A DNA stretch of 64,000 nt from Lophium mytilinum (GCA_010093605.1 MU004190.1:1881599-1945598), one strand, 5' to 3'; positions 6,482-55,390 are shown, counted from the first letter of the stretch. Numbers and translations are program-made. Notes: generated from the letters alone by a model not told the origin.

Positions 6482-6628
6482 CCAAAACGAAACTTTTGGG
6501 ATTTCCCGCCGCCACATGGCATTTTTTCCAGTCTTGACAACGGTATACCACCGTCAGGAGGACCCCAGCTGTCAAGCCGCCGCCCAGTCAAAAGGTTGCC
6601 CATATTAGGAAGGCAGATCTTTCTGCTC

Positions 6629-8548
6629 TCAACGTATAAGAACTGACTCTGTCCCATTTCGTACTATTTCCGTTTTCTTAGCCTCCGGTGCGATTGGCAA
6701 AAGTCTCAAACTCGGAACGTACTTCTGGAGGCCCTACAACGATCTGATCAGCTCAATATTCCATGGGCAACAATTTCGACATGGCCAGAGTACTTACTAA
6801 AGCGCAAGAAAGACATGCCAATAACTCCGCTTCCTCAAAAGTGGCGGACATACTGGCACCCCAGGACACAGAGTCATCCCCCTTCAGTCGGCAATTCGTA
6901 ATAGCCATCTCCTGAGTCGTACCACTCTCCGCCCATTTCCGCTCGACAACCTCAAAGGAAAGCTGAAGGCCAGTTCCAATCGCCAACGCGCTGGAAACTG
7001 CAGCGGCAATACCGTCTGCGCTACCGCGAATGTCCCTCGCAAGTCCATTGATGAGAATTGTCGCACAAATCTCAACCTGGCCACTCCTCCCTCGGGCACG
7101 ATATCCATGCTTTAGAATTCTTGCATCTATCTGCCGAACATGGTAGGTTTCCAGGAAAAGATCTTGAATATCAACCGGCGACAGGACTCGGCCAACCTTG
7201 TCTGAGGCACTCTTAACAATCTTCGAGAAGTCCTGCTGGAGAGCCTTCGGCAAATCCAAGTCCACACTCCTCTGCAACGCCCACGCCACGCCACCCTTCC
7301 CACTCTGTGAATTGACCCTGATGACCGACTCATACGTTGCACCTATATCCTTCGGATCAAGAGGAAGATAGGGCACCGTCCAAATGTTCTTCCTATCAGA
7401 CGTCGGGATCTCCCACATCTTGAAGCCTTTATTGATGGCATCCTGATGGCTCCCGCTATACGCTAGGAAGACTGAGTCTCCAGCGTAAGGTGCACGCATG
7501 TGAACGGGAATCCGCGTGAGCCTTTCTACCGTCTTTCGGATTGCTGGGAGATCTGAGAAATCGAGCTCAGGGTTGACTCCTTGGGTGTAAAGGTTCAAGG
7601 CCAGCGTCACAAGGTCCACATTACCAGTCCTCTCGCCGTTCCCGAAGAGACACCCCTCCACTCGAGTAGCGCCCGCGAGTTGACCTAGCTCTGCTGCTGC
7701 AACTGCGCAGCCGCGGTCATTGTGTGGATGCAAGGAGACGACGACGGAGTCATGAGGGAAAGCACGGCAGAAGAGCTCTACTTGATCGGCAAAAGTGTTG
7801 GGAGTGCTCATCTCGACCGTAGCAGGAAGATTCAGGATCACTGGAGTCTCCGATGTTGGATTCCAGGCCTCGCGAACAGCATCGCACAACGCGATGGCGT
7901 ATGATGTATCGGTATCTGAAAAGGCTTCGGGACTGAACATCAGATTCCAGCTCGTGCTCTGCCGATCAGGGTCGTCTTTGGTGATTGACTTGGTGTAGCG
8001 GACGCAGTCCACAGCCAAATCAAAGACGTCCTGCCGCGACAACCCGAAGATGGTGGATTGAAACGCGTCGCTAGACGCAATGTAGAGACTGATAATCGCC
8101 TTCTTTGCACCGGTAACACTCTCGACTGTCCGCTTGATCAATTCGCGACGACACGGCGAGAGGACCTGTAACCATACATCTTCGGGTACAGCGTTTGGCG
8201 TCTCGACAAGCTGGCGCGTGAAATTGAATTCCGTGTTTGAGGCGCTCGGGAAGGCGACGTCGATTTCTTTAAAGCCCATCCGAACTAGGAGGTCAAAGTA
8301 GATCTGTTTTTCTGCTACGGTCATTGGGTGGGCTAGGCTTTGGTTACCGTCGCGGAGGTCTGTAGCGAGCCATCTTGGCGATTTTGTGATGGTTTTGGAG
8401 GGCCAGGTTCGGTCTGGGAGAGAAGGGGGAGCGAAAGGGGCGTATTTCGCGGACGGGTCGCGGAGCCTGGTGGGGGTTAGATCTCGAAGTATACGACTTT
8501 CTGCAAAGCACCGTTCTAGAAAAGTAAGGTTTCCACTTACATTGGCAT
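6629..8548 (-). CDS. LEU4: 2-isopropylmalate synthase-like (divergent LEU4/LeuA paralogue)
   Basis: Spliced start MPMLRDPSAKY...RWLATDLRDGNQSL (intron 8467-8540); motifs FSPE, NLPATVEMS, SLHPHNDRG, GERTGNVDL, SGSHQDAI, RVNSQSGKGG. Predicted 3' intron ~6734-6797. Confidence 0.93.
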
Positions 8549-8712
8549 GGTGGCTTTGGATGGAATTGATTTTGAGGAGCTGAAAAAAAGGTGTACAATG
8601 TCCAAATTTCTTTTGGCGGACACTTATTGGGATCTCCTCGAAGGGACGTCAAATTAGGGATGTTCCCATCAGTACCCCTTGCACACGATCTAAGCAGCCG
8701 AGTTTCCGATTT

Positions 8713-8808
8713 CGGTCCGCATTTTCGGATCGGTGTGATCGATAGGTTGATTGGACGCTCTAACCGAGCGGACCGCTTGTTAGCTTTTCGAGAACCCAGC
8801 TCGGACCG
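8713..8808. promoter_or_regulatory. Three CGG(A/T)CCG sites in the divergent synthase/dioxygenase promoter (putative Zn2Cys6 sites)
   Basis: CGGTCCG 8713-8719, CGGACCG 8769-8775 and 8802-8808. The same motif occurs upstream of the isomerase and aminotransferase genes. Confidence 0.55.
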
Positions 8809-9005
8809 CGGTGACTGCTGTGTCATCCCCGGAATCTGTGTCCTGTTTCGGGTTAGACATGAGAATCTCGTTTATTATGCTCATGTGCCTCTGGACGCAG
8901 CTCCTGTATATCAAGGATACCTTTGCAGGCACATAATATATCAAGGGCCTAACTTTCCAGTTTCCACTCTCATTGCCTTGCCGTTGTTAAAATCCTCTCT
9001 GCGAA

Positions 9006-10128
9006 ATGTCACCACCAATCCCGATTCTTGATGCTGCTTCCATGGCCAAAGGAACGGGCGAAGAAAGGGCAGCGTTTGGCCATAAGTTCCTCGAGAGTAT
9101 GACCGAATATGGATTTGTGAAACTTGTCAACCACACTGTTCCGCTTCCTGTCGTTGAAGATACGTTCAGCAAAGTAGAATCTCTTACCAAAGAAGTTTTC
9201 AAATACTAATGTTTTTTAGATCAAGCAATTTTTCAAGTTGCCTTTTGACGTAAAGAGGCCAACGATCAATGATCCAAAGAAGGGACAGCAACGTGGCTGG
9301 AGCCCCCCTGGCGAGGAAAAGACATGGTGGTTAGAGAGCAACACTGGGGACGTCGAGTCTCCTCGCTTCAGCGATAACAAGGTAACTTCATCTAGCCATC
9401 ACATTCATTGTTTAACTCATGACTGAACATTGCTTCAGGAAAGCTTCGACTGCGGGGATCCCAAGGACAAGCAGTTCCCGAACCAATGGCCTACTGAGTC
9501 TGCTCTTCCGGGTTACCAATCTACCATGGACCAGTTTTACTACGACTGCGGCCAGCTCTGCGTCGACCTGCTAGAGGTTCTCGCCGCTCAAATGAATCTT
9601 GACCCAAAGCTCTTTTCGTCCAAGTGCACCAACGAAGCCAGCACAATCCGCATCAACCACTTCCCACCCATCGACCGGCAAACCCTCGAAAGCGGCCAGG
9701 TCAGCCGTATCTGGCCCCACAACGACTTCGGCATCATATCCCTCGTTTTCCCCGACCGAACCGGGGGCTTAGAGTACGAAGACCGTGAGAACCCTGGCAC
9801 CTTCATCCCAATGCCGTACAGCGGCGACGACGAGGTAGTCGTTATCATCTCAGAGACCTTCCAGCGATGGACGAACGGCGCTGTGAGACCAGGCTTACAC
9901 CGCGTGACCAAGCCTGTTGACATGGTCGGGGATGTTGTTCCGGAAAGATGGAGTCTGGTGTACTTCTGTAAAGCTGATAGACATATAAATGTTGGGCCGT
10001 TGGAGGAGTTTGTGGGACCAGAGAGGCAGCCACTGTATGAGGATCTGACGGCGCTGGAGTATCAGGCGATGCGGAATGCGGTACACTATCCTGAGCCGGT
10101 AGCGGAGGGGGTTTCGGTGGAGGCGTAG
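9006..10128 (+). CDS. 2-oxoglutarate/Fe(II)-dependent dioxygenase (IPNS-like fold)
   Basis: YGFVKLVNH N-terminal motif, HxD (PHNDFG), distal His (GLHRV), RxS (RWSLVYF). Introns 9174-9219 and 9382-9438. Confidence 0.92.
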
Positions 10129-10129
10129 A

Positions 10130-10950
10130 CTTACATGTTTTGACTGATTAGCTAGCTGCTAGCCGGGCCACTCCTCACAGTGGTAGTCAATGAGAATGAG
10201 TATAGGTTGGATAGGTAGATATCCGAGTACCGATCCTTGTGTTCAGGCATTCAATATTATACTGCCTTTTGCTCATTAGCTACATACTTGCGGGACCACT
10301 CTCTACAGTGGTGATTAGTGTGCAAGAGGAAGCCGAATCAGTAGTATGCTCGTGCTCGTGAACATATGATCTAGCACAGGATATGCTACACCTGGTCCAA
10401 TGGAGATTGAATATTCTTTAGGCCTGTTGGATACTCGCTTGCTGAAGGGCTCTATACGGCAGCATGAATCATGCAAAAGCACTGTCTGAGCAGTAGGAAA
10501 GCCTTGCTCCTAGCTTATAGCTTGGTGTTACAACCGTCCAAATTGATGCACTAGATCTCAGATGACCCTTTGACTACTCAGATGCCTGCTAGCAGGCCAC
10601 TCTTCACGGTGGTGTTAAGCCAACAAAAGCGAAGCCTACTCAGGAGTATGTCCTATGTCCATGTGCATGAAATAAAAAGCAGCCCCTACTGTGTCACGAG
10701 ACCGACACTCAACAATAGATGGCGTTTAGGCCGACGGGCAACCTGCTACCTTGAAAGCTCTCATACAAAAATAAGCCCAGGTAGAGCCACGACAGTAGTA
10801 GAATCTTATGACCAAATCAACGACTTCAAACAGATTGCCTCAATAGGGGTATACCTACTTTCACAAACATGCTCATGATGCAAATTGAAGGAAAATCCAG
10901 TAGGCCATTGGTCTGGTACGCTGCCTACTAACTGATCTACAGTTTAGAGT
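10130..10950 (-). repeat. Tandem array 2 of the ~151-bp repeat (degenerate, ~5 copies, opposite orientation to array 1)
   Basis: Anchor CCACTC-like...CAGTGGT at ~10168, 10296, 10447 and 10597. The sequence GTGGTGTTAAGCCAACAAAAGCGAAGCCTAC (10609) matches the reverse complement of array 1 (GTGCTATCAAGCAATCAAAACAAAGCCTAC). Confidence 0.7.
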
Positions 10951-11090
10951 CGTCTCAAGGAAGGAGTTTAGTCTGAGTAGAGTAATGTTCCTGTGGCTGA
11001 GCTTAATCTCACATCCCACAAGGCATCATCCTTCAGTCCTCTTCACCAGCACTGAGGCTGAGGGACCGGGCTCTCGCTGTATCAGTACTT

Positions 11091-12011
11091 TCATGCTCCT
11101 GTAGGTGACTGCCCCCCCTGAACCGCCAGCTTGCTTGGCACCCCAACGGTACCATCATCTGCCTCTTGCATAATCCAACGCGTACCTGCAGTCTCAAGCT
11201 CGGTACCGAACGCGCCTTCACACCACAAGAGCTTCAATGCGAGTTCGATAGGTCTCCATCGCAGAAGGCTAGAGCGAAGCAATTCCGCATGTACTCTCAA
11301 TTCAGCGTGACGCTCCGCCACAATCGGGTCCAAGTTTTCATAAACCTTTGCCGCCTCCTTAATTCTCTTCACTAGATCGCGAACGTATTCCTGGATTTGT
11401 AGCATAGTAATGCCTTGAGAGCCAGCCCCAGCCTCGATCTCGGTCTTCCACCCCGTGAGCATGTCGTGCTTAATCGTCAGGGTGAAGATTGGAGGCTGGC
11501 AGCAAAGCGCACGTTGCCATTTGCCGGCTGGGGCATCCAAGAGCGTCGTGACCCAATCGTGTTCATCGAAGTAGCCGAGCAAGTGATCAAACCTTGGATC
11601 CCCAGCTTGGCCATAGTGATCCCCTGTTAGACACCACGTGCTCGTTCCCGGGAGCAGGACGATTGGAGGTTGGCGCTGCGTCAGCATGCGGAGAAGCATT
11701 GGGTGCCACTGACGGCCGATCACAGGCGGCACTCGATAGACAGCGTCGTTGGGAAAGGCGGCGGACTTGGGAAGCAAGAAGCCGGGGACACGCAGTGTTG
11801 GGGCCTCTGAGAGTGGAACGAAGAACAGTTTTTGTTGGATGGGTAGACTGCCGTCGATGATGTCGCGCCACTGCTTGCATACGCGCGAGGCCGAGATGAC
11901 CTCAGAGAACGGCAAATACTGGAAGATGTTTTCGACCAGCTCGACGATATGGCCTACGCGCTCGGAGGCAGGCATTCCGGCGCTGGTCTTGTTGGCGTCG
12001 CTAGTGCTCAT
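11091..12011 (-). CDS. F-box domain protein
   Basis: Intronless 306-aa ORF with IVELVENIFQYLPFSEVISASRVCKQWRDIIDGSLPIQQKLFF. Confidence 0.85.
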   Translation of the reverse strand: MSTSDANKTSAGMPASERVGHIVELVENIFQYLPFSEVISASRVCKQWRDIIDGSLPIQQKLFFVPLSEAPTLRVPGFLLPKSAAFPNDAVYRVPPVIGRQWHPMLLRMLTQRQPPIVLLPGTSTWCLTGDHYGQAGDPRFDHLLGYFDEHDWVTTLLDAPAGKWQRALCCQPPIFTLTIKHDMLTGWKTEIEAGAGSQGITMLQIQEYVRDLVKRIKEAAKVYENLDPIVAERHAELRVHAELLRSSLLRWRPIELALKLLWCEGAFGTELETAGTRWIMQEADDGTVGVPSKLAVQGGQSPTGA

Positions 12012-12289
12012 GGTGAGAGACCGATCTGAGCTTTGCTGCCGAGACGTCAGGGAAGGTAAGTGGTTGTGGGATCCCCGTTTCGAGGGCTGTGTTATGATGC
12101 TGAGTTGTTAGTCCTGATTAGGTGAGATTTGTGCGGAGGGAGAAATTAGGGTAACGTTGTTGATAGACTGTCGGTTGCCCGGTGACTACGGAGCGGCGAT
12201 ACAAGTCAAGACTTCTACACTTCTGCTGTGCCTCGCCGCCCACCCCGCCCCTCGGGTGAAGTTGGAGGGCCTGCCATATAGTCTGGCAG

Positions 12290-12572
12290 TGTCGATAAGA
12301 CTGTCATTTAACAGTTTGCCTGCTCAACGGCCAGGCTACCCCCAACAGTTGTGTTAAGTAGGCAAAATCAGGGCAAAGCAGAAATAACTCCATGTGCCCG
12401 CACTTATAGCCCAGTACTGTAGATGTCAAAGTTTAAGGAGTAGAGATTAGTCTGCTTTTTAATTAATTGCCTGCTCAGCCGCCAGGCTACCTCTAATAGT
12501 GGTGCTAAGAGGGCAAGTCGGAGTAGAACTGTATTAAGTCTGTGCGCCCATATATGTGGCCCAAGACTGTAC
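12290..12572 (-). repeat. Tandem array 3 of the ~151-bp repeat (~1.8 copies)
   Basis: TTGCCTGCTCA...GCCAGGCTACC at 12316 and 12467 (151 bp apart). GATGTCAAA...GAGATTAGTCTGCTTTTTAA matches the reverse complement of array 1. Confidence 0.8.
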
Positions 12573-12582
12573 CGCTGCAGTA

Positions 12583-13267
12583 CCGTATGGCGTTTCCCTA
12601 GATCCCTAACACAGAATCAGCATCGAGCCAGCAGCCTCTCTACAGTAAAACAATGTTGCAGCTAATTTTACATATGTGCCATGTTCCAATGGAGGCAAAG
12701 TAGCACCTAACATGGAGTTACTACTCTAACTTGGAGTTTTTCCAAACATGAATAATTAATCCGAACATAAACGGTTTTTCCGAACAGCGCCCCAACAGCG
12801 GCTGGGCAGCACGGCACACAGGTATGCATGCCACTGTCCACCACCCTACCATGCGCAATAGCTCGCGCAATATGCTGCGAAATGTAGGATACGTCTAGGT
12901 AAACTTTCTTTGCTAGGAATTAATATAGTATTCTTATTTTAATAGCGTTGCTACTTTCTAAGAGCAACCTCTAGCGAAATCTCTAATAATACGTGAGACT
13001 GCTAGTAGCATGCTAACCCCGAATTTACGCCAAACATGGAATTTTGCTGAACATGAAGTTATAATACAACAGACTCGCACAGCGGACCTAGAATTATATA
13101 GAGAATATATAATTAGGTAAACTATGCAGTTACATTTAACAAAGTTAAATAGAATATGGCGTCTACACAGTATTGTACCTAAAAGTAAGTAGATACGTGA
13201 TTCGGCGCGGATATACTTTCAACTCCGTGCCAACCCCTAGTTCAGGATCTAGGGAAACGCCATACGG
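12583..13267. mobile_element. Non-autonomous Tc1/mariner-type element (MITE), TA target duplication
   Basis: Perfect 23-bp TIR CCGTATGGCGTTTCCCTAGATCC at both ends, flanked by TA at 12581-12582 and 13268-13269. AT/TA-rich interior, no transposase. Confidence 0.85.
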
Positions 13268-13563
13268 TATATTACGTGACTTCGGACCAGCGTTGAAGAT
13301 AGTATCGGATCCCAGCAATCCGAACACTACTGTGCTCCCAACTATGGATCCGAAGATGACGCATCCACCTTACTCATCCGACTGCTCGGATCCCGACCGG
13401 ACCGAACTTTACGTCAACGGTTACACCTACTTGTTAGCTGGTCCGATCGGTGACACTGGCTTCTTGCTGACAGGGAACGGGTTTGTACGACCTCCTAGCA
13501 ATTCCCGTATCGATTAAAAGACAAATCCAAGACTGCTCGAATTAACAACTTCGCGTCGAAACT

Positions 13564-15950
13564 ATGATAACCACAAAGAAGCCACGAACTCTCTATGAGA
13601 AAATCTTCGATGACCATGTTGTCGTAGAGCGAGATGATGGCACAGTCCTGCTCTATATCGACCGCCATCTGATCCACGAAGTCACTTCCCCAGTACGGAA
13701 ACTCAAATATGCCCTCGAATTTTCAGATACTAGTCTGACTCTTCCACATAGCAAGCTTTCAACGGTTTAGCTTCTCGATCGCTCCCTGTCCGCCAACCCA
13801 CCCTCCAGCTCGCCACCTCCGATCACAACGTTCCCACCACCCCGCGCCCCTATCCCGTGTCCCCGTCCACATACCTCCGCCTCCCCGCCTCACGGCTCCA
13901 GGTCCAAACCCTTGAACGCAACGTCCGGACGCACAAGATCCCCTACCTAGGGCTGAACTCCCGTCGGCAGGGAATCGTGCACGTGATAGGTCCAGAGCTG
14001 GGATTCACGCTCCCCGGTACCACCATCGTGTGCGGAGATAGCCATACAAGTACCCATGGCGCATTTGGAGCACTAGCATGGGGCATTGGTACAAGCGAGG
14101 TGGAGCATGTGTTTGCGACGCAGACGGTCGTGGTGACGAGGTGGGGAAACATGAGAGTTGAAGTAGGCGGGGCTTTAGCAGGAGGTGTAAGCAGTAAAGA
14201 CCTGATGATGCATATCATTGGGACGATAGGTGTGTGCCATTGTAGACCCGTGACTTAAGTGAAGCTGACCGAATGCCCAGGCACGGCGGGGGGCACGGGA
14301 ATGGTGATTGAATTCGCCGGCCCCGTGATCCGAAATATGAGTATGGAGAGTCGGATGGCGCTATGCAATATGTCCATCGAGGCAGGGGCTCGAGCTGGAT
14401 TGATAGCGCCGGATGAGATGACATTCGAGTACGTGAAGGGACGACCTCTGGCACCGACCGGTCCACAGTGGAAGGACGCACTGAAATACTGGAAGCACCT
14501 CTATTCAGATCCTGGAGCCCTTTTTGATAAGACAGTGCGGATTGATGCCACAGCGGTGATGCCCACGGTCACATGGGGCACCTCTCCGGAACAGGTCGTG
14601 TCAATCACCGGCTCGGTTCCAGCTCCAGAAGACTTCGAAGACCTGGTAAAACAAGAGAGTTGCCGGCAGGCGTTGAAATACATGGGCCTAGAAGCCGGCA
14701 CGAAAATGACAGACATCACAGTCGACAAAGTCTTCATAGGCTCATGCACCAACGCTCGACTGGAAGACTTTCGCATCGCCGCTCAGATCGTTCGTGGGAA
14801 GCGGATATCGCCCAATCTCAAACTCGCTCTTGCTGTTCCGGGGTCTGGGGCAGTGAAAAGGGCTGCGGAGTGCGAAGGAATTGATACTATTTTCAAGCAA
14901 GCTGGATTCCAGTGGCGAGAAGCGGGGTGTAGCTTATGCGTGGGCTTGAATGAGGACGCGTTACTGCCCTTCGAACGATGCGCGAGTACGAGTAATCGGA
15001 ATTTTGAGAGCCGCCAAGGAACGGCGGGCAGAACGCATTTAGTTTCTCCAGCGGTCGCCGCTGCGACTGCGATTCGTGGCACGCTGGCTGATGTGCGTCT
15101 TGAAACCACAATGCGATCGGAGGAGGTCTTCGAGGCAATATATGCGTCCGAGAGCGAAGAAGAAGTCGAGAGCGGAAGTGAGGTAAGCGATCCGGAAGTT
15201 AACGCCATTGGCGAACCTAGCGCAGCTCCAGTGGCACGAGGATTGCAGACATCAGCATACTCCACTACTATTCGTGGCAGTGTCGCCATCATCGAGCGCT
15301 CGAATATCGACACAGACGCCATCTTCCCGAAGCAGTTCTGCACCACTATCGAACGTAAAGGACTGGGCGATTGCCTGTTCCAGAATCTCCGCTACTACCC
15401 TGACGGGAAACCTAAAGCGGACTTCATTCTGAACCAGAAGGACCACCGTAACGCTAGTTTCCTGTTAGCCACAGGCCCAAACTTCGGCTGTGGCAGCTCT
15501 CGGGAGCATGCTGTCTGGGCGCTGCAGGATTTCGGGTTCCAGTGCATCTTTGCACCCAGCTTCGCCGATATCTTCTACAACAATTCATTCAAGAATGGGC
15601 TTCTTTTAGTGAAGTTAGACGCCGTACTGATAGCTCGAGTTGTCGAAGCGGTTGGACTGGGACAACAAGTCCAAGTCAATCTTGCTGATCAGGTGTTATT
15701 GGACGAGAGTGGTTCTATGATTGGAAGATTTGATATTGAAAAACACCGGAAGAAAGAACTGATTGACGGCATAGGGGAGATTGAGGTCAGTCTAGCAACA
15801 GTCGAGAGTATTGAGAACTTCGAGAAAGATAGGGGAGCAGCACGGCCTTGGATTGATCAATCGGTGCGCGATGGGTGGAGTTCGAAGTTGGCGAGGGAGG
15901 TCAAGGGAAGGAAACAAACTCGCGCGCAGCCAACGTCTTTAGAATGGTAA
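13564..15950 (+). CDS. LEU1: 3-isopropylmalate dehydratase/isomerase-like, fused large+small subunit (divergent LEU1 paralogue)
   Basis: [68 protein letters not shown]. Introns ~13693-13751 and ~14230-14280. Confidence 0.93.
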
Positions 15951-16047
15951 TGATATTGCAGACCCTCTTTCGATGATCTTGCACAAAGAAAATATGGTTA
16001 CTGCAAAGAGCATTAGGAGAAGCGAGGGTACAGAAAGGTTTCAATAT

Positions 16048-18301
16048 TTAACGAGCGTCTAAAAAATCAAAATTGTCAAAAGAGTCTTTATCAAGTGAAG
16101 GAGTATTGAAAATGCTATCCGGCACGTCTTGAGGGAAATCGAAGTACCCCGTGGAGGGAAAAGATGAGATGTCGAGCTCAAAATTTGCATTCAAGCCAGG
16201 ATCCGTTGGGGTGGAAAGAAAGTCGTCGGAGCCTATCGACGACTCATTGGATTGGCCCGCCAGGTCCATAGCTTCTCCGGTGTTGAGTTTGCGGTGCGCC
16301 ATCAAGTAAAGCTCGCTGATATCTTCGAATAGATTCGGAGCTGCAGATTCATTGGTGCTGAGTCTTCCAAAGTACCCGCAAGCCATGCCAAGGAAAGGCA
16401 GGCAGTCCTTCCCCACTTCTTGCTTGCAAATGGAGATGAAGATTACGACGGCAGAAAGAAGCGGTATGAATATGCGGTGCCTACGGCAGATCAATAACTA
16501 AGCCTTCGGTCTGCGACGGTACGGTATCAATACTTACCAGTCTAGCTCGTGATCATCGAGGCGGAAGTAGTGTGTCCAAAGAAGTACCCCCTTTGCCAGT
16601 TCGATGCAATGGTCGCGGCTCGAAGCGTACGCCGTAGTTGCATCTGACACGACATTGTGTTCGATGACCGCCCAGCGGTGAATGGCGAAGGATGCCTCTA
16701 CATATTTCAGAAAGATGTCTGATGGAATGCATGTATCCCAAGACCGATTCTGAAAAGCTGACGAATCAAGGTTACTGTCTGGGCGGTAAGCGGCCGGTAT
16801 GGACATTCTCCACGCCTCTAGCATCTTGGAAAGCCGATCGATAGCGGCCAGAATTTCAGAGCGACTCATTCTCAGAGCTGCGTGGCTGTATAGTGTCTTA
16901 ACAATGACGGAACAGAGCCGGGCGTAACGGTAATGGACAACGTCCCAGCCTGCTCGGCTATCGTCTGTGGAAAATATAGAGTCTCGCCGCTTCGAAGGTG
17001 CAAGGAAGACAATAAGGTCGTCATCAATCATGGAATGACTGCCGAATCGTAAACTGAACGGCTTCTCAATAGAGTAGAGGAGCCAAAAGACTCGTTGGAT
17101 CTCTTGTTGCTGATTATCGTCAACTGCTGTTGAGAAAGGGCTTTTCGGAGCTTTTGAGATGAGCTCTTGAATCGTATGGATTGCTTGCGATAAGATTGAT
17201 CTCATCAATGATACATTACGGTGCTGTCTTAGATAAAGGGCTAACACCGTCAGAGCCTGTAGTTTCAAAAACGACGGTTGCCCATCTGTGAGGTCGTTGC
17301 GGTGCTGCAGTGCACGTGCGAAGTATTGGGAAGGCCAATAGATGGCTTTGGCGTGTATGGGATTGCATCGTGGAGAGTCCTTGCGAATTGCGCTGCGGCA
17401 TCCGATTGCGAGGACTCCATTGAGCAGTGTGTACTCGTCTTGATCGACAGTGCTGGACGAGGCGGCAACTGTAGCTACGATATCTTCGATGTGTTGACGC
17501 CTGACGAACGAAGGATGACCATAGCAGCTGTTGAAGAAGACATTGATGAAGTGCGTAGTTTCTGGATCTGCATATGATGGGATAGAATCCCCTTGGTTTT
17601 GAGAGTTGACAGTCTCGGGAATTCGCCGTGACTTCGTCCATGTTTGCTTTGACAAGACCGAGAGATGGTCTTTCGACGGCGGACTTTCTGAGAACCGGTC
17701 AATGAACTGCAATGGGCCTAATGATGAGAAATCGGTGCATAGATCCTCAGCCCACGACTTGCTCCACCCGTGGTCAGCCCTGACGGGAATGTCATGATCG
17801 AGCGGATGGTGGTCGTTTTCAGTCCTTGACGGGGAGTCAAATAATTGCCAACCATCTCTTTCAACTGCGAACGCGCTGGGCTCAAGGATGTCGTCCAGGA
17901 TGATATCGGGGATGCTGGGTATGTCCTGGGAGTTGCCGCTGAGGCTCGATAGACGATTGGAAGTGTTGCGCAATAGCTCCCAGCTGGCTACGTTGCGTTC
18001 GGATAGTGTCGGTGTTATGGGCTGGCTGAATCTTCTTTCTATAGTCTGCTGGGAAGTCTGGTATGAGCATATTAGTGCTGATTTCTGCGATGGAGAAAGC
18101 GTCAGCGACAGAATAAATGTCGTCGTATGTATAGAGAGGATCTTTACCATGCATTGAGAACACGTTGACGACCCGTCGCCTGCAAAGGTCAGTGAGAATC
18201 ACATAGCATTGGAACCTAAGCTTACATCTGACTTTTCGTAGCCTACAATTATGACAGGCACCTTTGCGACGTGTAATCTTACGAGCGCTTTTCCAATCCA
18301 T
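16048..18301 (-). CDS. Zn(II)2Cys6 transcription factor with fungal-specific TF domain
   Basis: Spliced N-terminus ACHNCRLRKVRCDGSSTCSQCMKSALICSY has all six Cys; downstream RVFWLLYSIEK motif. Last intron near 16480-16537. Confidence 0.88.
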
Positions 18302-19380
18302 AATAGCAAGCGATGGCAAGTAGGCGGATATGGTGGCGAGGCCTCATCTATGCCAAAAGGATGATGACACCCCCGTGTAGTCGACGAATGGGACGAACAC
18401 TTCTCAATGCTTAATGAAGTAACGAAAGAAGCATACTTAGGGTGTTTGTGAGAGTCTTGGGGGACATGGGTTCTCCAGGATGCCAAGCTGACTTTAACGA
18501 CGTGCGGGATGTAAGCAGAGAACCGAGTAGTGTCCTGGAGTAAGCGATGATGAGTAGATGCTGCACTGAGAGTAGATCTGATCCTGCAGGCTATAACATG
18601 GGGGCAGCTTGGGTCCGCAGACTAAGCTTATAGTGTTGTGTAACCCACCTACAGAATCCTGGTTGATGGAAGTCGGTCGAGAAGCTTACCCAACAATGAA
18701 ACGTATAGACGCGGAGAAGCTGTGACGGATATGTGGGTTGTAAGCCACGTAAGTCACCCCTTTTGGAGAACGGATTGGTCTGCAAACTGCTGACAGATGA
18801 AGGACTGATCTACTAGCTTATTTTAGGGTACCATACACCGACTCTTTGGAGTCGGGTTCGACCCATGTTTCTTTGTTCATGGGCCATGTTACCGAAAGAC
18901 AGTTTACAAATTGCCCCATGTCGTGCAACGTAACGCATGCTGAGGCAACAGTCTGAAGCCTGAGCAGGAGAAAGCTACCTGAAAGAGGTCAAGGTAACTC
19001 TGACAGTCGTTGTTTTCAAGGTTAAGAGCTCTATCGAATACGTATGGATAGTGGTGACCAATGGAGCCTTTGCATGGCTTCGAGCCTTCTGAGATGCAGG
19101 GAAGTCTCATAGCAGATTAAATGTCCCGCAATTGCACGATGTTGCACAAATAGAAATGGGCAAAAAGGAAAGAATCATAGGGACCGACATCATACATGTG
19201 CGGGGACTTACATATCCCAACCAATTGTAGAGAGTTCTAGGAGCGCTTCACGAATGGGGAGAACATAGCGGAGCGATTGCTTGATCGAAAAGTGCTCAGT
19301 GCTGAGAATTGACAGACAGATCGCAATTTCGAACCGTCTTTTCAAGATGGCTTAATCTAATAGGAATGATTCAAAGCATC

Positions 19381-20620
19381 CTACCTACTGATACGATCGA
19401 CAATCACGCTCCATTCATGTTCTTCAACACCATACTGCCTATGCTCGATCCAGTTTTTCATCAATGTAGCCACTTTCCCTGCGTTCTGCGTAGGAGCGAG
19501 GCCGCAATCCACCAAGTCTTCTTTCCACTTGATAGCCTTGACAGGGCTAACGACAGCAGCGGTTCCTGTGCCGAAAACTTCGACCGAACTCCCGGTCTGC
19601 GAGGCGCGAGCCACCTCCGCCATGCATATTCTACGCTCGCTGATGACCCAACCGAGTGGTTGAAGTCGTTCACGGGCGAGGCTTAAAACACAATCGCGCG
19701 TGACGCCAGGTAGAATCATGCCATCTAACGGCGGTGTGACGATTTCGAACTTGTCGTGCCCTGGAACTCGAAGTACGATAAAAAGGTTCATAGTTCCAGC
19801 TTCGGTTATGTCGTCATCATCTCCAAAAAGCCAAAGCAGTTGTTGAAACCCGCGTCCCTGAGCCGCCTTCTCCGGAGCAATACAGGGTGCGTAGTTCCCA
19901 CCAATCTTTTGATTGCCGGCCCCTCCTGGCCATGCTCGAGTGGCATACGAGCTACTCGCTGCTTCAAGCCAAATGGGTTTGAAGCCAGCAGAAAAGTAGG
20001 GTCCGACAGGGGAGGCTACCATGTAGAGAAGGGCTGAAGTAGGTGCGGAGACCCCAAGCCCACGATTCGTACCAATAAGTACTGGACGGAGATAGAGCGA
20101 ATATCCTGGGCGTATGGAGATAAACTTTGCTTCAAGCTTGACAAATTCTGCGATCAGCTTCAGTAACTCTTCAGAGTTGAACTCAGGTAGCGCTATTCTG
20201 GCTGCCGACTTGTTGAAGCGTTCGAGATTCGCATGAGGCCGAAATAGCCTAATCTGGCCCGTTGAATCCTTGTAGGCCTTCATGCCCTCGAAACATTCAA
20301 ATCCATAATGGAAAACGCAAGCAGTCGGGTCGAGAGAGATTTCCTGGTAGGGGATGATGCGCGGCCGCTGCCACCCATAGTCTGAGGTCCACTGGATTTG
20401 AAGCATGTGGTCTCGAAAACAGATTAGTGTGGCCTACAGCAACCACAATTTCGTGCTCAAGCTTACCTGTGACATGCTTTCCGAAAGCAAGGTCTTCATC
20501 GGGAGGTGCTCTAGACGGATGGGAATTCTGCGTGACTTGTAGTAAAGAGGCATCAAGTGCTGCGGGTGAAGGAAGCGTCTGGACGTACTCCGGAGAGGTG
20601 GCGAGGAGTGCTGGGGCCAT
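19381..20620 (-). CDS. Branched-chain amino acid aminotransferase (PLP class IV)
   Basis: FHYGFECFEGMKAY, LYLRP, catalytic Lys in KIGGNY, EAGTMN, ILPGVTR, GTAAVVSPV. Start MAPALLATS at 20620; intron ~20413-20467. Confidence 0.93.
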
Positions 20621-21362
20621 ACTGCGCAAGGCTACATCTACACCATAGCCGCCGTTCTTGCAAGCTTTCCATAGGCTCTTATTCCCGTGCTGGGCGACCC
20701 ATGGGACGCGGATCGAGGGTCCGACTGCCGCAAAACAAAGCGCTTGACGGTACGGTCCGTTCGGACCGCAACGGTTCGGTGGATAGGGGTACGTGCATAG
20801 CGTTGACACATAGGAACACTTTTTTTCGGCATCGCCGGAGGACGCTTGCTGCCTGCTTATGGTGGCAAGGGGTTTGGTTTTGGAAATCTGCTGTGCGACA
20901 TCGGAATTGGCGGCAAGTAAGCACGGCGGGTCCTTGCAGAAGCCCCGGGGGGGATATTGTTGGATACGGGGTGTTTTAGCGACATATGCATCGAGCACCT
21001 GCTGGTGGCGAGCCGCATTGCTCGTGAGGTGTGATGGACAGAGGAGGAGGAGAGGTCCTCACTGAGGATTTGGGGATCTCTTGGCGAGAATGAGTCAGCA
21101 GCACGTCTTCAATTAAGGTTCGTGCGTATTCTATTCTCTTTCACGCTCTAACGTCATCCAACCATCCACGCCCTTCGATTGATCCAAGGTTAGCTTATGG
21201 GCCGCCTGAAACACTGGTCCCCGCTGCATCCCGACTGACGGTGGGATGAAAGCCTCTACACTTGCCATCAGGAAGCTTCGAGCCACCTTCGAGAACTTTT
21301 TCTTACGGCAGGTTCAATTCTAAACTTCTCCCAGGATCTTTCATTGTACATATCTCTTTACG

Positions 21363-22892
21363 ATGTCTGACAGCTGCGCAGAGCTTACCGCTCTCCCATC
21401 CGTATCGCACAAGAATCCCGAGTGCCTAGATCCAACTGCCGTCCGACCTGGAAACGATACAATTGGAAATGAAGATGGCTTAGTATCAAAGGAGGTCATC
21501 GGCGATGAGCCCGATGCGATCGAACAAGTCTCCGAGTCACACTCTTCCCATGGCCAAGAATTTTCCCTTCCTCCTGTCGATGGTGGAAAAGATGCATGGC
21601 TCTTCTTGGCGGCTTGCTTCGTGGTTGAGGCTCTTGTCTGGGGTATGTCAAACCCACTTCCACGCTCATGCCACGGTTCTAACGAAAATCCTAGGTTTTC
21701 CCTTTTCGTACGGTGTATTCCAAGACTACTATTCAACCCACGAGCCGTTCCAAGGGTCGAGCAATATCGCCGTGATCGGCACTTGCGCAATGGTGAGCAG
21801 GACACCAAAAGGCCCAGGGCCATTACTAAAGTTCACCAGGGCATCATGTATCTCGACTTGCCCATCGTGTTCGCCATTCTTCGCCGTTGGCCACGTTCTC
21901 AACGTTACGCGACTGTAGGCGGCCTGCTCGTTATGTGCCTAGCTCTCGCTCTCAGTGCCTTCTCAACCAACACCAACCACCTGATTGTCACCCAAGGCGT
22001 TATTTACGCTATCGGCGGCAGCTTTGCTTACTCCCCTTGCATCCTATATATGGATGAATGGTTTGTAAGGAGGAAGGGTCTGGCTTATGGCATCATGTGG
22101 GCTGGCACCGGCCTGGCGGGCGTCGTCCTTCCGCTCTTCATGCAATGGCTGCTGAATGCATACGGCTACCGCACCACGCTCCGGGTATGGGCCATCTGCC
22201 TCTTCGTCCTGACAGCTCCGCTTCTGTACTTCGTCAAGCCCCGGATCCCGGTCGCGCAGACCCACCAGCCTCGTCCACTCGACTTCGGCTTCTGGCTCAC
22301 GTCCACATTCGGAGTGCTGCAGACCTGCAACGTCATCGAAGCACTCGGCTTCTTCCTTCCGTCGATCTACCTTCCGTCATACGCACGAAGTTTGGGCGCC
22401 TCGAGTGCTCTTGCCTCGCTGACTGTCGTTCTCTTCAACGTCGCCTCCGTCTTTGGCTGCGTGCTCATGGGCTCCATCGTCGACAAGTGGCACGTCACTA
22501 CCTGCATCCTGATCTCCACCATCGGCTCAACCATCAGCGTCTTCATCATTTGGGGGTTCTCCATGTGTCTACCACCGCTGTACATCTTCTGCCTCGTCTA
22601 CGGACTCTTCGCGGGAAGTTTCACGAGCACGTGGCCAGGGATTATGCGCGAAGTGCAGAAGAAGAAAACGAGGGCAGACCCGAGTATGGTTTTTGCGTGC
22701 CTGGCTGCTGGAAGAGGCATTGGCAATGTGGCGTCGGGCCCCTTGAGCGAGGTCTTGATTCGAGGCATGCCTTGGCGTGGAGATGTAGCCTTCGGGTACG
22801 GGAGTGGCTATGGCATACTGATCGTTTTCACAGGTATCACTGCGTTCTTCGGAGGTGCCAGCATTTTCGGAAGACGCATTGGCTGGGTATAG
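21363..22892 (+). CDS. MFS transporter, monocarboxylate porter family
   Basis: PPVDGGKDAW, WFVRRKGLAYGIMWAGTG, YLPSYARSLG and multiple TM segments. Introns ~21644-21694 and ~21793-21839. Confidence 0.9.
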   Translation: MSDSCAELTALPSVSHKNPECLDPTAVRPGNDTIGNEDGLVSKEVIGDEPDAIEQVSESHSSHGQEFSLPPVDGGKDAWLFLAACFVVEALVWGMSNPLPRSCHGSNENPRFSLFVRCIPRLLFNPRAVPRVEQYRRDRHLRNGEQDTKRPRAITKVHQGIMYLDLPIVFAILRRWPRSQRYATVGGLLVMCLALALSAFSTNTNHLIVTQGVIYAIGGSFAYSPCILYMDEWFVRRKGLAYGIMWAGTGLAGVVLPLFMQWLLNAYGYRTTLRVWAICLFVLTAPLLYFVKPRIPVAQTHQPRPLDFGFWLTSTFGVLQTCNVIEALGFFLPSIYLPSYARSLGASSALASLTVVLFNVASVFGCVLMGSIVDKWHVTTCILISTIGSTISVFIIWGFSMCLPPLYIFCLVYGLFAGSFTSTWPGIMREVQKKKTRADPSMVFACLAAGRGIGNVASGPLSEVLIRGMPWRGDVAFGYGSGYGILIVFTGITAFFGGASIFGRRIGWV

Positions 22893-23094
22893 ATTTCTAC
22901 TGACGCCCTGGACAGCCGCATTCTAGATTCAATATTTTCACGTTGGGGCAGGGAAGTAGAAGTTTCTTTCATCAAAAATTCGGCTAGGAACATCAAATGG
23001 GATAGATACCATCAAAAATCCAATATGCGGCATTCAATTTCAAGCTAAACACCAAGGATATCTTCCATATAATGTTCACAGATCTTGCTGCAGT

Positions 23095-24843
23095 CTATTC
23101 TGCAGTCCACAACTCCGCTCCCTTCTCCAGCCACTCATCAACTGGTGCTTTCTTTGAGTCGGCGAGCTTCACGCGCTGAGTCAGTCGCTCAACAACTGGC
23201 AATTCCTCCGAGCTATTTGGCTCCGATGGCTTTGGCGTCGCTCTCTTCGTAATTTTCACATACTTCCCTGTCGCCGGGTAGGCCTCTTTCTCCGGCTTGG
23301 CCGGCCCTTTCTCCCACCACGAAGGAAACGCTGGCACCGAGTGTCTCCAGAACCTGATCTTCCCGTCGTGATCCAGATTGACATAAGTCTCCTTCTCTTT
23401 CAAGAAATGGATGCCCAGGGGCGTATACCCATCCGTCACCTGCCCCTGCGTCTTCAAAAATCCCTCCTTCGCATTACTGAAGCGGTCCCAAACAACGACG
23501 CTCCCATCAGAACACCCAACCGCCAACTTGGCATCATCAAGCCACTTAACGCTATTAAGGTCCGCCATGGACCCGAACTTCCGACCCCCCTCTTCTTTCT
23601 TCAATTTGATCTCCATCACCGCCCCATCCGTCTCCAACGGCCTCCAGACGTACGCGCTTGGCGACCCAGTGCCAATCGCGATATAGCACCCATCCGCCGT
23701 CCACGCCAGACTCCTTGCCCAGTGGTTCAGCTTCTGCGGGAACGTAGCGTTACACCCACCCGTCTCCACATCGAGCACCTTGATAACACCCCCGTTCTTA
23801 CTACTCCACACGATTTGCTTACCATCCGGCGAAAACGCGGCTGTCCAGCATTGCCCACGGCTGTCCTCGGTCACCCAGGTTAGCGAACCGGTGTAGGCGT
23901 CGTGCATCCGCATCGTCCCGTCCCACGACACGGTCGCGATGCGGGTCCCATTGGGGCTGAAGCCGGCCCACGTGATCGTGTCAGTGTGGCCGTGGAGTCT
24001 GTATAGCTCTTTCCCGGCATTGAGGTCCCACACGCCGATCCACGGCGCATCATCCACGTCGCGGATGTCGGAGGGCGTGCTCGCGTCGCTCGTAAGGTAG
24101 AGCAGGCGTGAGCCGTCCGGGCTGATGGGGTCGCCGCCGACAAAACGCGCCACAGGGATGATGGTGTTGTGGGCGATGTGGTGCTCCGTTTCCGCCTTCT
24201 TCAGAGCAGTTTCAATATCTGCTGCCAACGTTGAGCGGCCTATGAAGTCGGACGACCATTCGTGGTGGGTGGTGAGGTCGGCGGAGATGCTGGCGAGGGC
24301 TTTTGCGGCGAGGGCGGGGGCGTCGAGGGGCTCGTCTTCGTCGAGCAGACGGCCGTTCTTGTCGAGGTCCCATATTACGAGGCTGGCGCCCTCTGCGTAC
24401 CGGCCGCTGGAGGGGACGGAGCAGATGAGGGTGTATTTGGGCCCACCGTTCAGCGTTTCGTCTTCGGGGCTGGATTCTAGCTCTGTCTCGCTGATGTCTT
24501 CGCCGCGCCGGTCTATGGGCCGGAAGAAGACGTTGCCGCATCCATCGAGGGTCTGCCTTAGTTCTTTGCTTTCGAGGTCATACACGTAGATCTTCTTCCC
24601 GGCGCTGACGGCGAATAGAGCTTCGTCTCCACTTACAGCGCTGTACATACTGTGGTAATGGCCCGCATCATCGCCTAGAGGAACCGAGATGGTTCTACTG
24701 GACGGGCAGCAGTCCCAGGTGAACGGATGCCCTGACGCCCAGTCGGCGGATTCATTGGCGATGCGGAAGTCGTGGTTGGGATCGATGGCGAAGCTCCAGC
24801 CGGCGAGAAATTGGCCGCGGCTTAGGCTTGTGCCGGAGGGCAT
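23095..24843 (-). CDS. WD40-repeat protein
   Basis: LHGHTDTITWAGFSPNGTRIATVSWDGTMRMHD, AAFSPDGKQI, GCSDGSVVVWD; intronless 582 aa. Confidence 0.85.
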   Translation of the reverse strand: MPSGTSLSRGQFLAGWSFAIDPNHDFRIANESADWASGHPFTWDCCPSSRTISVPLGDDAGHYHSMYSAVSGDEALFAVSAGKKIYVYDLESKELRQTLDGCGNVFFRPIDRRGEDISETELESSPEDETLNGGPKYTLICSVPSSGRYAEGASLVIWDLDKNGRLLDEDEPLDAPALAAKALASISADLTTHHEWSSDFIGRSTLAADIETALKKAETEHHIAHNTIIPVARFVGGDPISPDGSRLLYLTSDASTPSDIRDVDDAPWIGVWDLNAGKELYRLHGHTDTITWAGFSPNGTRIATVSWDGTMRMHDAYTGSLTWVTEDSRGQCWTAAFSPDGKQIVWSSKNGGVIKVLDVETGGCNATFPQKLNHWARSLAWTADGCYIAIGTGSPSAYVWRPLETDGAVMEIKLKKEEGGRKFGSMADLNSVKWLDDAKLAVGCSDGSVVVWDRFSNAKEGFLKTQGQVTDGYTPLGIHFLKEKETYVNLDHDGKIRFWRHSVPAFPSWWEKGPAKPEKEAYPATGKYVKITKRATPKPSEPNSSEELPVVERLTQRVKLADSKKAPVDEWLEKGAELWTAE

Positions 24844-25563
24844 TTTGAAGAGCGAAGGGGTTTTTTTGGGTGAAAGTGAAGGGGACTTGAGGAAAATTTG
24901 AACGAATCTTTGGGATGAAGAGGTTGGGAGAGAAAGCTACTTGGTGTTCTTACTTTATTTGGTTGCCTAGAGGTGGAGGTTGAACGTTGACAGGGGATCG
25001 GCATGACGTTTGGAGGCGGAAAAGGTGGCGTTCGCCTCGAGATTCAGGCACCGTGGCACCTCTATGTCTCTCATGTCTCCCTCAGCCTCATCTATCAACA
25101 TATACACACACAGTATCTGCTGCTTTTCTTAGTAAATCGTGACGCATTCTAGCCTTCAGCGTTACTCCCATTTCCGCATTACTGCCATTTTAGCTTCAAC
25201 GCAAACCCACATCATTCTGTTCTCAAATATCCAAACGCCACATTGCGAAATCCACCTAGGTAGGTTCGCGGAGGGCAGCAGCGCGACATCAACCCTAAAG
25301 CAGAGGTTACACTGAATCCACTAACATCAAGCCTTGACTTTCGCAATACGATTCACAGTAGAGTCCCTACCATACGCGGTCGCATTTTTGGGCACCTTTC
25401 TTGCTCTCGCTCATCCTCAGATCGCGACTCCGCAACACTTGCATTTGCAACGACTCTCCCTCCACAATAATGACCACTCTTGTTGAACCTCGCACGGGTG
25501 AGTTGGCATTTCGGACGACAATCGACGACTACGAAGCCATGAGGTACAATCTAGATTTGCTAC

Positions 25564-31554: not shown

Positions 31555-32427
31555 TCGGGTGGTTGGCGGCACAGTCTCTGTGCTGCGAAGGTAGTTGAGT
31601 ATGGCTAGCAGCAACGTGCCTTGTTTATCTTGTGAGCGAAGTGCTGCGGCGCCGGCGCTAGGGCGGAAGTAAGATGCTCGTCGGCGCGGGCCGAGCTCGG
31701 GCTGCAGCACGCACAGCAGCGTCGAGTCGCGATCGGCCGTCATACAGTACAACATGGGCAATAGAATAACATGCCAGCAAAATTGATCTTAGCGAAATAC
31801 AATGCCAGAAAACGCCATGGGGACCGTGTAGGACCGAGACCATGCCAATACAGGCCTAGAAGCTAGCTTCTAAGCTCAATTAAGCACACCCCTGGTCCTC
31901 CACCGTCCCCATGGCGTTTCCTGGCATTGCACAACTATATACAGGCCTCGGCCGTAGTATTAAGGCTCAATTTGCACGTGCCGTGCATCACGTAATTGCC
32001 TGCGCAGGAAGCACACCGCCATCACCACCACGCCGTAGAGGGCCTCTACCTAAGCCTCCAAATCGCACCAGGCTCTATAGGATCAATTCCAATAGATCAG
32101 CGCCTCTAAGGCCCTCCTGGAGGCGCTCAACAAGCGCCAAATTGCCCAAATTAGTAATAGATATACGGGTTGAGTTGTTAAGGATGCAGGCGAGCTGCCA
32201 CGCCGTAGGAAGCTGTAGAGGAGTGGATTTGCAGGCTTCGTGGGCCTCATCCGGTTAGAAGAGCTACAGACCGACTTTTGCTGTAGCTGCACCAAGGATC
32301 TATCTACTCGTATTCCTACACCGTGTCAGTAATGAAAAAGTGATGAAAATCAACGGATTTTAATGCCGTGAAGCCGTGAGAACTCACCATATAGAGGCCC
32401 TTTCCGTGCCTTTTTAGAGGCCTCATC

Positions 32428-32508
32428 GCCATCATCCTGCAGCGTTGCCATCATTCTACAGCCTTGCCATCATCGTGCAGCCTTGCCATCATCGTGCAGC
32501 CTTGCCAT
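32428..32508 (+). repeat. 19-bp minisatellite (~4 copies) in the MULE 5' region
   Basis: Repeated GCCATCATCGTGCAGCCTT and variants. Confidence 0.85.
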
Positions 32509-32546
32509 TAAGCTTCATACTTCCCATTCTCTCCATCATCATCGCC

Positions 32547-55299: not shown

Positions 55300-55390
55300 T
55301 TATTCTATTATAGGTCTCTAGTATAAGTTTATTTTTATTTAAATTATTTTTAATATTATATTTACTAGCCTTCTAAAAAGTATAATAAAA

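Follow-up and report, generated by a model that had tools for sequence, protein, structure and literature searches.

A conserved cluster of leucine-pathway paralogs and a UcsF-like dioxygenase in Lophium mytilinum, a candidate route to an unusual amino acid

Gene content and conservation of the cluster

We analyzed a 64-kb window of Lophium mytilinum DNA (GCA_010093605.1 MU004190.1:1881599-1945598; the window is this whole stretch of 64,000 nucleotides, and positions are counted from its first letter). Six intact genes, recognized by Pfam domains and spliced models, lie at 6753-22892: a LEU4-like synthase, a dioxygenase, a LEU1-like isomerase, a Zn2Cys6 transcription factor, a branched-chain aminotransferase (BCAT), and a major facilitator superfamily (MFS) transporter. 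The synthase and the isomerase group apart from their housekeeping counterparts, the core of the cluster recurs widely in Pezizomycotina, and we suggest that the cluster probably makes an unusual amino acid. Gene models combined Pfam searches on long reading frames with splicing built by hand; the six spliced models contain 10 introns, all GT..AG and 46-74 nt long.

8548-6753 (-), 2-isopropylmalate-synthase (LEU4)-like gene; exons 8548-8541 and 8466-6753; 573 aa; HMGL-like and IPMS_D2 domains
8549-9005, bidirectional synthase/dioxygenase promoter with three CGGWCCG sites
9006-10128 (+), Fe(II)/2-oxoglutarate (2OG) dioxygenase; exons 9006-9173, 9220-9381, and 9439-10128; 339 aa; DIOX_N and 2OG-FeII_Oxy domains
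11091-12107 (-), F-box open reading frame (ORF); 338 aa; Pfam E 2.4e-9
13564-15950 (+), 3-isopropylmalate dehydratase (LEU1)-like isomerase, large and small domains fused; exons 13564-13692, 13752-14229, and 14281-15950; 758 aa; Aconitase and Aconitase_C domains
18301-16534 (-), Zn2Cys6 transcription factor; exons 18301-18226, 18179-18148, and 18084-16534; 552 aa; Fungal_trans domain
20620-19381 (-), class IV (branched-chain) aminotransferase, BCAT; exons 20620-20467 and 20411-19381; 394 aa; Aminotran_4, E 2.2e-29
21363-22892 (+), MFS transporter; exons 21363-21642, 21695-21792, and 21840-22892; 476 aa; MFS_1, E 2.5e-20

The isomerase model is identical, letter for letter, to Lophium mytilinum P0121 (758 aa), and the synthase model is identical to L. 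mytilinum P0001 through residue 540 of 573. Beyond that residue, the public P0001 model splices out a stretch through which Mytilinidion P0002 reads. The six-cysteine motif of the transcription factor (CX2CX6CX5CX2CX6C) is visible only after splicing. A first-pass annotation had listed the same six genes within 16 kb, and Pfam and the spliced models confirmed all six, but it had overlooked the F-box ORF. This ORF sits between the dioxygenase and isomerase genes, where a related metagenome contig (L003, described below) has only ~550 bp, and is probably an insertion unrelated to the pathway.

The domain scan covered 12 ORFs from the long reading frames and, of the 67 ORFs outside 6600-25000 that reach 110 aa, a further 35; the 32 ORFs outside the scan are mostly antisense or overlapping. 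No nonribosomal peptide synthetase (NRPS) or polyketide synthase (PKS) domain and no isopropylmalate dehydrogenase (Iso_dh) was found among these 12 + 35 ORFs, and to that extent the earlier statement that the window contains none of the three holds. Nothing within the cluster resembles a pyrroline-5-carboxylate (P5C) reductase or an imine reductase.

Linkage in other fungi was read from neighboring locus tags or shared contigs printed with the database matches (the best 120 for the synthase and for the isomerase). Equal contig size served as a proxy for the same contig, which for Mb-sized contigs carries no information on distance. The synthase, dioxygenase, and isomerase are linked by tags or contigs also in Mytilinidion and Lachnellula, and the individual cases were as follows.

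Teloschistes flavicans, neighboring tags Q9202_005014 / 005015 and LQ352_003052 / 003050
Aspergillus nanangensis, neighboring tags FE257_005509 / 005508
Paraconiothyrium brasiliense, neighboring tags SLS60_008646 / 008644
Kalmusia, neighboring tags N0V90_008727 / 008728
Xanthoria sp. 1, neighboring tags L6R42_002627 / 002629
Talaromyces rugulosus, neighboring tags TRUGW13939_08758 / 08759
Delitschia, synthase, dioxygenase, and isomerase together on a 17.6-kb contig
Lachnellula suecica, synthase, dioxygenase, and isomerase together on a 57-kb contig
Two further contigs of 14.0 kb and 38.2 kb, synthase, dioxygenase, and isomerase together on each

The synthase and dioxygenase are found side by side, in most cases accompanied by the isomerase, in Dothideo-, Lecanoro-, Leotio-, Eurotio-, and Sordariomycetes. 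We also fetched seven metagenome loci with a dioxygenase profile and read them with local tblastn and Pfam; one, L007, was too short. L003 repeats the order and orientation of the window, with the synthase (-) at 7792-9459, the dioxygenase (+) at 9890-11043, the isomerase (+) at 11599-13931, and, in the same place and orientation as the window factor, a factor relative (-) at 14413-14883 (53% identity over 158 aa). It lacks the F-box gene, has housekeeping Brix and DEAD-helicase genes 3.1 kb past the synthase, and contains no isopropylmalate dehydrogenase among its 7 ORFs scanned. L001 carries a divergent synthase/dioxygenase pair, and L006 carries a distant pair (50% and 38% identity) adjoining arginase. 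In L005, a 40% dioxygenase relative lies near a P450, an ABC transporter, and an NRPS A-T-C stretch; L005 (1-11331) and L006 (1-6919) may be echinocandin-like or homotyrosine (hty)-like clusters. On L004, the dioxygenase has a 67% relative, and no match to the synthase was seen in the 20.8 kb of this locus, where the Pfam scan covered 14 of the 19 ORFs that reach 130 aa.

The first-pass annotation had described the cluster as an orphan. Because the core recurs in at least five classes of Pezizomycotina, and because one metagenome contig (L003) repeats the gene order, it is not. Judged by these linkages, the conserved core is the synthase and the dioxygenase, extended by the isomerase and the factor.

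Synthase and isomerase paralogs

The synthase carries HMGL-like (E 4.2e-71) and IPMS_D2 (E 5.7e-29) domains. Its C-terminal 199 aa gave no match to LeuA_dimer (PF08502) at E up to 10, compared with 1.8e-21 for the housekeeping synthase P0055. The best 120 database matches divide on this domain, which is absent from 58 (the first 48 and 10 later ones; ~500-625 aa, 52-98% identity to the window synthase) and present in 62 (mostly 590-650 aa, 51-54% identity). Within the same 120, Delitschia confertaspora and Lasiodiplodia theobromae have one synthase of each kind apiece. As for the isomerase, PF27434 and PF27512 are absent from those of its best 120 matches that have 53-84% identity, and nearly all housekeeping rows (51-55% identity) carry PF27434 at least.

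We built quick IQ-TREE trees of both enzymes, with SH-aLRT supports only (Shimodaira-Hasegawa-like approximate likelihood ratio test) and without bootstraps; long branches were flagged for Hymenoscyphus, L006, and Macrophomina. In the 53-row synthase tree, all 19 rows of housekeeping LEU4 fall into a single clade (SH-aLRT 100, branch length 1.02), and the window belongs to the other 34 rows, the paralogs. There its companions in a clade of 11 rows (99) are Mytilinidion, Lachnellula, three Teloschistales, three Didymosphaeriaceae, and two metagenome loci, and the sister (98) of this clade consists of 14 rows of Aspergillus, Penicillium, Talaromyces, and Chaetomium. The 36-row isomerase tree places the window in a 14-row clade (100) of much the same taxa and the 19 housekeeping rows in a separate clade (100). 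These trees had been set beforehand as the test, and neither enzyme groups with housekeeping orthologs. On their placement in the trees, the synthase and isomerase are paralogs distinct from the housekeeping leucine-pathway orthologs; with the altered pockets described next, this agrees with the earlier suggestion that the two had been repurposed.

Both paralog trees place the Leotiomycete Lachnellula and the lichen-forming Teloschistales amid Dothideomycetes, and the overall distribution is patchy. This nesting and patchiness would fit horizontal transfer of the cluster, or an old duplication with many losses.

Pocket columns were read in 118 sequences through an alignment to Mycobacterium tuberculosis LeuA (Mt-LeuA; 1sr9). 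The 56 paralog rows are the window and 55 matches, three matches shorter than 480 aa having been dropped. The position of Mt-LeuA His167 is a serine in 56/56 paralog rows and a histidine in 62/62 housekeeping rows. Residues L143, Y169, S216, E218, N250, P252, T254, H285, and H287 are retained in synthases of both kinds, and R80 and D81 are retained in the 33 paralog rows that reach them, the remaining 23 being N-terminally short models. As read from these columns, the catalytic residues of the synthase are intact and its substrate pocket is altered. E. coli LeuA His97 reportedly corresponds to Mt-LeuA His167 (Zhang et al. 2008). An E. coli LeuA carrying H97A on top of S139G is reported to accept longer 2-keto acids (PMC3370425).

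The small-domain recognition loop of the isomerase reads FCTT in 24 of 28 paralog rows (HCTT, YCTT, FITT, and FCKT in the other four) and FLKT in 87 of the 92 other rows, the five exceptions including Conoideocrella, which groups with the paralogs in the tree. In isopropylmalate and homoaconitate isomerases, the choice of substrate depends on the loop at the FLKT position. All three Fe-S cysteine positions are conserved in the aligned isomerase paralogs.

An AlphaFold model of P0002, built from a 30-row alignment, has a mean predicted local distance difference test (pLDDT) score of 76.4 and contains two beta-beta-beta-alpha units at 454-560 (block pLDDT 82-95). Superposed on leucine-bound Mt LeuA (3fig), residues 21-563 of the model match chain residues 59-643 (Z 39.4, 469 aligned residues); the root-mean-square deviation (rmsd), at 14.4, is high owing to a different arrangement of the domains. 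Loss of the synthase regulatory domain is ruled out in this model, in which the fold is retained through 3fig chain residue 643. The model indicates instead that the allosteric domain has diverged beyond Pfam detection, its fold still being present.

The dioxygenase and a shared promoter motif

A word-limited database search with the dioxygenase returned 41 proteins that passed E 0.001 (43-97% identity), the best-scoring 24 of which (64-97% identity) come from five classes. The window enzyme shares 327/339 residues with Mytilinidion P0241; identity to Mytilinidion is 96% for the dioxygenase, 91% for the synthase, and 86% for the isomerase. Residues H204, D206, and H264 (HxD...H) and R280 and S282 (RxS) are invariant in 18 aligned relatives and present in the window translation. 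The closest solved structure is UcsF (9ktp), matched over query residues 5-322 at E 1.9e-82 with a profile and 1.6e-69 with the single sequence; a thymine dioxygenase comes second (5e-48 and 1.6e-37, respectively). Our literature search found no paper on the 9ktp structure. UcsF acts on L-isoleucine at C5, en route to 3-methylproline. Both UcsF and DetxE, which is 42% identical to UcsF, are reported to oxidize free L-isoleucine to 4-methyl-pyrroline-5-carboxylate, from which general P5C reductases then finish 3-methylproline (PMC8233208). By analogy, and in line with the first-pass annotation, the window enzyme is a putative C-H oxidase of the type that acts on free amino acids, since it groups with UcsF by structure-database match.

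The same annotation had reported a shared promoter motif and named none. We identified it as CGGWCCG, a CGG-N1-CCG palindrome of the kind bound by Zn2Cys6 dimers. There are 10 sites in the 64-kb window, six of them in three cluster promoters:

8713-8719, 8769-8775, and 8802-8808, three sites in the 457-bp synthase/dioxygenase spacer
13398-13404, CGGACCG site 166 bp upstream of the isomerase start codon
20753-20768, two adjacent CGGWCCG sites (starts 20753 and 20762) between the BCAT and MFS start codons

For 6/10 window sites to lie within 2655 bp of cluster promoters has a binomial P of 9e-7, calculated post hoc. The motif is kept in relatives: in L003, three sites fall within the 424-bp spacer and one lies at 11442, ~157 bp before the isomerase (4/7 sites, P 5e-4), and L001 has four sites in the synthase/dioxygenase spacer (4/5 sites, P 1e-3). 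When the three spacers are aligned, no island other than CGGWCCG is conserved. There is none in the distant L006 spacer and none in the promoter of the Zn2Cys6 factor, and the four promoter stretches, with the factor promoter among them, have no 7- to 10-mer in common.

Two CGGACCG sites 19 bp apart also occur inside the dioxygenase coding region of L003 (10910 and 10929) and L002 (989 and 1008), with none there in the window. The spacer between dioxygenase and isomerase also contains, a short way upstream of the 13398 motif site, a 689-bp element (12581-13269) whose ends are 30-nt inverted repeats, 93% complementary, with a 72-nt direct repeat pair beside it at 12294-12516. DNA contigs pile up on the element (depth 294-708 versus 175), so it appears to be multi-copy.

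Transcript evidence came from run X3, whose RNA label is only a guess; the contigs nevertheless show splicing, with 0 mismatches. An RNA-like contig spanning 19248-21034 skips the BCAT intron at 20412-20466, and both MFS coding introns are likewise skipped in an X3 contig, which reveals an extra 5' untranslated region (UTR) intron at 21116-21191. Since the BCAT contig reaches 21034, a BCAT 5'UTR of ~414 nt is implied; with this long leader and the MFS 5'UTR intron, the divergent BCAT and MFS transcripts nearly abut. The two BCAT-side motif sites lie inside the stretch covered by the BCAT contig, within the BCAT leader. X3 contigs do not cover 7168-11839 and 12424-18847 (synthase, dioxygenase, F-box ORF, isomerase, and factor), which says nothing on expression. 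Compared with representatives, BCAT has a best full-length identity of 56%, and an Atlas search returned generic BCAT clusters only.

A proposed pathway and its alternatives

From the genes, catalytic residues, paralog status, conservation, and motif observed above, we infer the following substrates, step order, and product. The cluster may lengthen a 2-oxo acid by one carbon, independently of an NRPS and under the control of the factor, and then oxidize a C-H bond of an aliphatic amino acid; we give this reading an even chance (a probability of about 0.5). The Zn2Cys6 factor would bind the CGGWCCG palindromes in the structural-gene promoters. The LEU4 paralog would condense acetyl-CoA with a 2-oxo acid bulkier than 2-oxoisovalerate, which it could accept because the pocket histidine is replaced by serine, and the LEU1 paralog, with its altered recognition loop, would isomerize the resulting 2-alkylmalate. 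Oxidative decarboxylation, not encoded in the cluster, would presumably fall to housekeeping Leu2, after which the class IV aminotransferase would yield an aliphatic amino acid one carbon longer. The UcsF-like dioxygenase would then oxidize an unactivated C-H of this free elongated amino acid to give a hydroxy amino acid. A second oxidation could lead to an aldehyde that cyclizes to an alkyl-pyrroline or -piperideine carboxylate, and general reductases could convert this cyclic imine to an alkyl-proline or alkyl-pipecolate. The MFS transporter would export the product. An outline of elongation followed by oxidation had been given in the first-pass annotation; paralog status, altered pockets, a UcsF-type dioxygenase, and the motif speak for it, and its orphan status is what had to be dropped.

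Several known systems resemble this proposal in part. The hty genes of the echinocandin B pathway (HtyA synthase, HtyD aconitase, HtyC dehydrogenase, and HtyB transaminase, for L-homotyrosine) are likewise clustered paralogs that extend a 2-oxo acid by one carbon, and 2OG dioxygenases are reported to tailor amino acids in the same pathway (PMC8948627, PMC7778625). Unlike hty, the Lophium cluster includes a Zn2Cys6 factor and an MFS transporter of its own, shows no dehydrogenase paralog, P450, or NRPS among the window ORFs scanned, and holds its dioxygenase in a fixed divergent pair with the synthase; its substrate is probably aliphatic. The two are set apart here by gene content. Aspergillus mulundensis P0029, considered as a possible HtyA, groups with other section Nidulantes rows in the synthase tree.

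The AM-toxin (AMT) cluster of Alternaria alternata lies on an accessory chromosome. Its BCAT, isopropylmalate dehydrogenase, isopropylmalate synthase (IPMS), and aconitase-family paralogs are described beside the NRPS gene AMT1, again as clustered leucine-pathway paralogs that include a class IV aminotransferase, in a Dothideomycete, and for non-proteinogenic amino acids (PMC5561558). In contrast to the window, AMT has a dehydrogenase paralog and NRPSs, and no UcsF-like dioxygenase is listed in that account (PMC5561558). Of the features that hty and AMT have in common, the window thus contains a synthase paralog, an isomerase paralog, and an aminotransferase, and lacks a dehydrogenase paralog among the ORFs scanned.

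UcsF (UCS1025A) and DetxE (destruxin) are of the same fold family as the window dioxygenase (full-length match, E 1.6e-69; intact HxD...H and RxS), and the destruxin pathway, as it is described, needs no reductase in the cluster (PMC8233208). Both belong to PKS-NRPS or NRPS clusters and act on a proteinogenic amino acid, whereas the window subfamily is tied to a synthase paralog; the relatives that neighbor an NRPS (L005) or a distant synthase (L006) share only 38-40% identity with the window dioxygenase. Methylthioalkylmalate synthase (MAM) of Brassicaceae glucosinolate biosynthesis is an IPMS paralog recruited via pocket substitutions and a changed C-terminal domain. BjuMAM1.1 (6e1j) superposes on the synthase model with Z 31.1 over 341 aligned residues (rmsd 9.0). 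MAM, however, belongs to a plant lineage, is of independent origin, and has lost the regulatory domain, the fold of which the window synthase keeps. Finally, AMHA, of sec-pentyl-tenuazonic acid in Alternaria alternata, is a free non-proteinogenic aliphatic amino acid of a Dothideomycete, made via IPMS, isomerase, dehydrogenase, and BCAT acting on a non-native 2-oxo acid (PMC12140367). The enzymes described for it are the ordinary branched-chain ones, with no dedicated clustered paralogs and no dioxygenase (PMC12140367).

A number of points weigh against elongation followed by amino-acid oxidation. First, no member of the cluster has a known product, substrate, or enzyme activity, and with no isopropylmalate dehydrogenase paralog, unlike in hty and AMT, the elongation cycle is incomplete as encoded. 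Second, no Aspergillus or Penicillium isomerase paralog is among the best 120 isomerase matches listed, though the synthase and dioxygenase are paired in both genera. Eurotiales may thus get by with these two genes, which suggests a two-gene minimal unit, a less obvious fit to an amino-acid scheme. Third, with a thymine dioxygenase as the second-best solved relative, an amino-acid substrate is not certain. Fourth, the window-wide count of 10 motif sites compares with a shuffle mean of 4.5 and is reached in 4 of 100 shuffles, a weak excess for a motif found by looking, and the two BCAT-side sites, being inside a transcribed stretch, may not act as an upstream element. Lastly, BCAT and MFS are tied to the core by adjacency and motif in this genome alone, and L003 ends inside the factor gene.

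Some of these points would suit a different role for the dioxygenase, namely oxidation of an alkylmalate. The enzyme could convert the C2-alcohol of a 3-alkylmalate to a ketone, with spontaneous loss of CO2, and so replace isopropylmalate dehydrogenase, of which no paralog was found in the ORFs scanned of the window or L003; or it could hydroxylate a 2-alkylmalate to give a hydroxy-dicarboxylic acid for export by the MFS transporter. Such a role would make sense of the synthase and dioxygenase as the most constant unit, two genes that diverge from a common promoter in the window, L001, L003, and, more distantly, L006, and that have neighboring tags in Teloschistes and A. nanangensis. It would also suit the seeming absence of the isomerase paralog from Eurotiales (among the best 120 matches listed) and the dioxygenase being the most conserved gene of the set (96% versus 91% and 86%). 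UcsF-type enzymes are reported to take an alcohol carbon on to a carbonyl (PMC8233208), but the characterized close relatives, UcsF and DetxE, all use free amino acids, and the presence of the cluster motif at an aminotransferase gene favors an amino acid as the end product. In addition, to our knowledge no Fe/2OG enzyme replaces an isopropylmalate dehydrogenase, and we count this against the alkylmalate role, which we consider rather unlikely. Taken further, the synthase/dioxygenase pair might be a new way to run 2-oxo-acid elongation, in which a UcsF-like enzyme, not an NAD-dependent isopropylmalate dehydrogenase, decarboxylates or otherwise oxidizes the alkylmalate, and the patchy five-class Pezizomycotina family might make an undescribed free metabolite, for example, an alkyl-proline or alkyl-pipecolate antimetabolite. 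We regard this extension as speculative and unlikely.

It is similarly doubtful that no new chain length is made. Here, a deregulated second leucine branch would oversupply leucine or its oxo acid, and the dioxygenase would produce 5-hydroxyleucine or a methylproline, like EcdK and UcsF. The absence of a dedicated dehydrogenase would be natural if the intermediate were ordinary 3-isopropylmalate, and UcsF-type enzymes are reported to use proteinogenic Ile (PMC8233208). The allosteric domain has indeed diverged past Pfam detection (no match at E up to 10 versus 1.8e-21 for P0055), but its fold is retained in the comparison with 3fig, so loss of feedback is not established. Moreover, the change of His167 to Ser (56/56 versus 0/62) is fixed across the clade, and both this change and that of the FLKT loop to FCTT fall where the substrate is read. 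Ordinary housekeeping leucine genes, or a chance neighborhood without common function, would fit the transcription of BCAT and MFS in the one RNA-like run (X3) but are very improbable, given that the synthase and isomerase fall outside the housekeeping clades, the same genes are linked in many distant fungi, and the shared motif is kept in relatives.

In the literature searched, hty and AMT were the only fungal amino-acid homologation cassettes we met, and both serve NRPS products; no study of this cluster family was found, supplements not being covered by the search. The Lophium cassette stands alone: it has no dehydrogenase, is tied to a dioxygenase predicted to oxidize C-H bonds, and has its own regulator and a candidate conserved binding site. 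The cluster recurs in lichen-forming, saprotrophic, and plant-associated Pezizomycotina, and so wide a recurrence of an NRPS-independent cassette points to a widespread small metabolite missed by finders keyed on NRPS, PKS, and terpene genes. The natural pocket variants (His to Ser in the synthase and FLKT to FCTT in the isomerase) are also of interest for engineered keto-acid elongation.

Beyond the cluster, the window contains a second group of possibly related genes at 30493-53874. It comprises a Zn-alcohol dehydrogenase (30493-31788) and an aldehyde dehydrogenase (35975-37535), 8-14 kb from the cluster, an alpha/beta hydrolase (37835-38878), a sugar-type MFS transporter (42943-44172), two flavin monooxygenases (45732-47096 and 49095-50537), and a frame with a Zn2Cys6-like cysteine pattern (51664-52347). 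Mutator-like element (MULE) transposase and SWIM zinc-finger frames lie at 32418-34713 (+). The window is fungal DNA, with a GC content of 0.47-0.59 outside its AT-rich part; at 54001-64000 the GC content falls sharply to 0.21-0.28, and this block looks like a repeat block degraded by repeat-induced point mutation.

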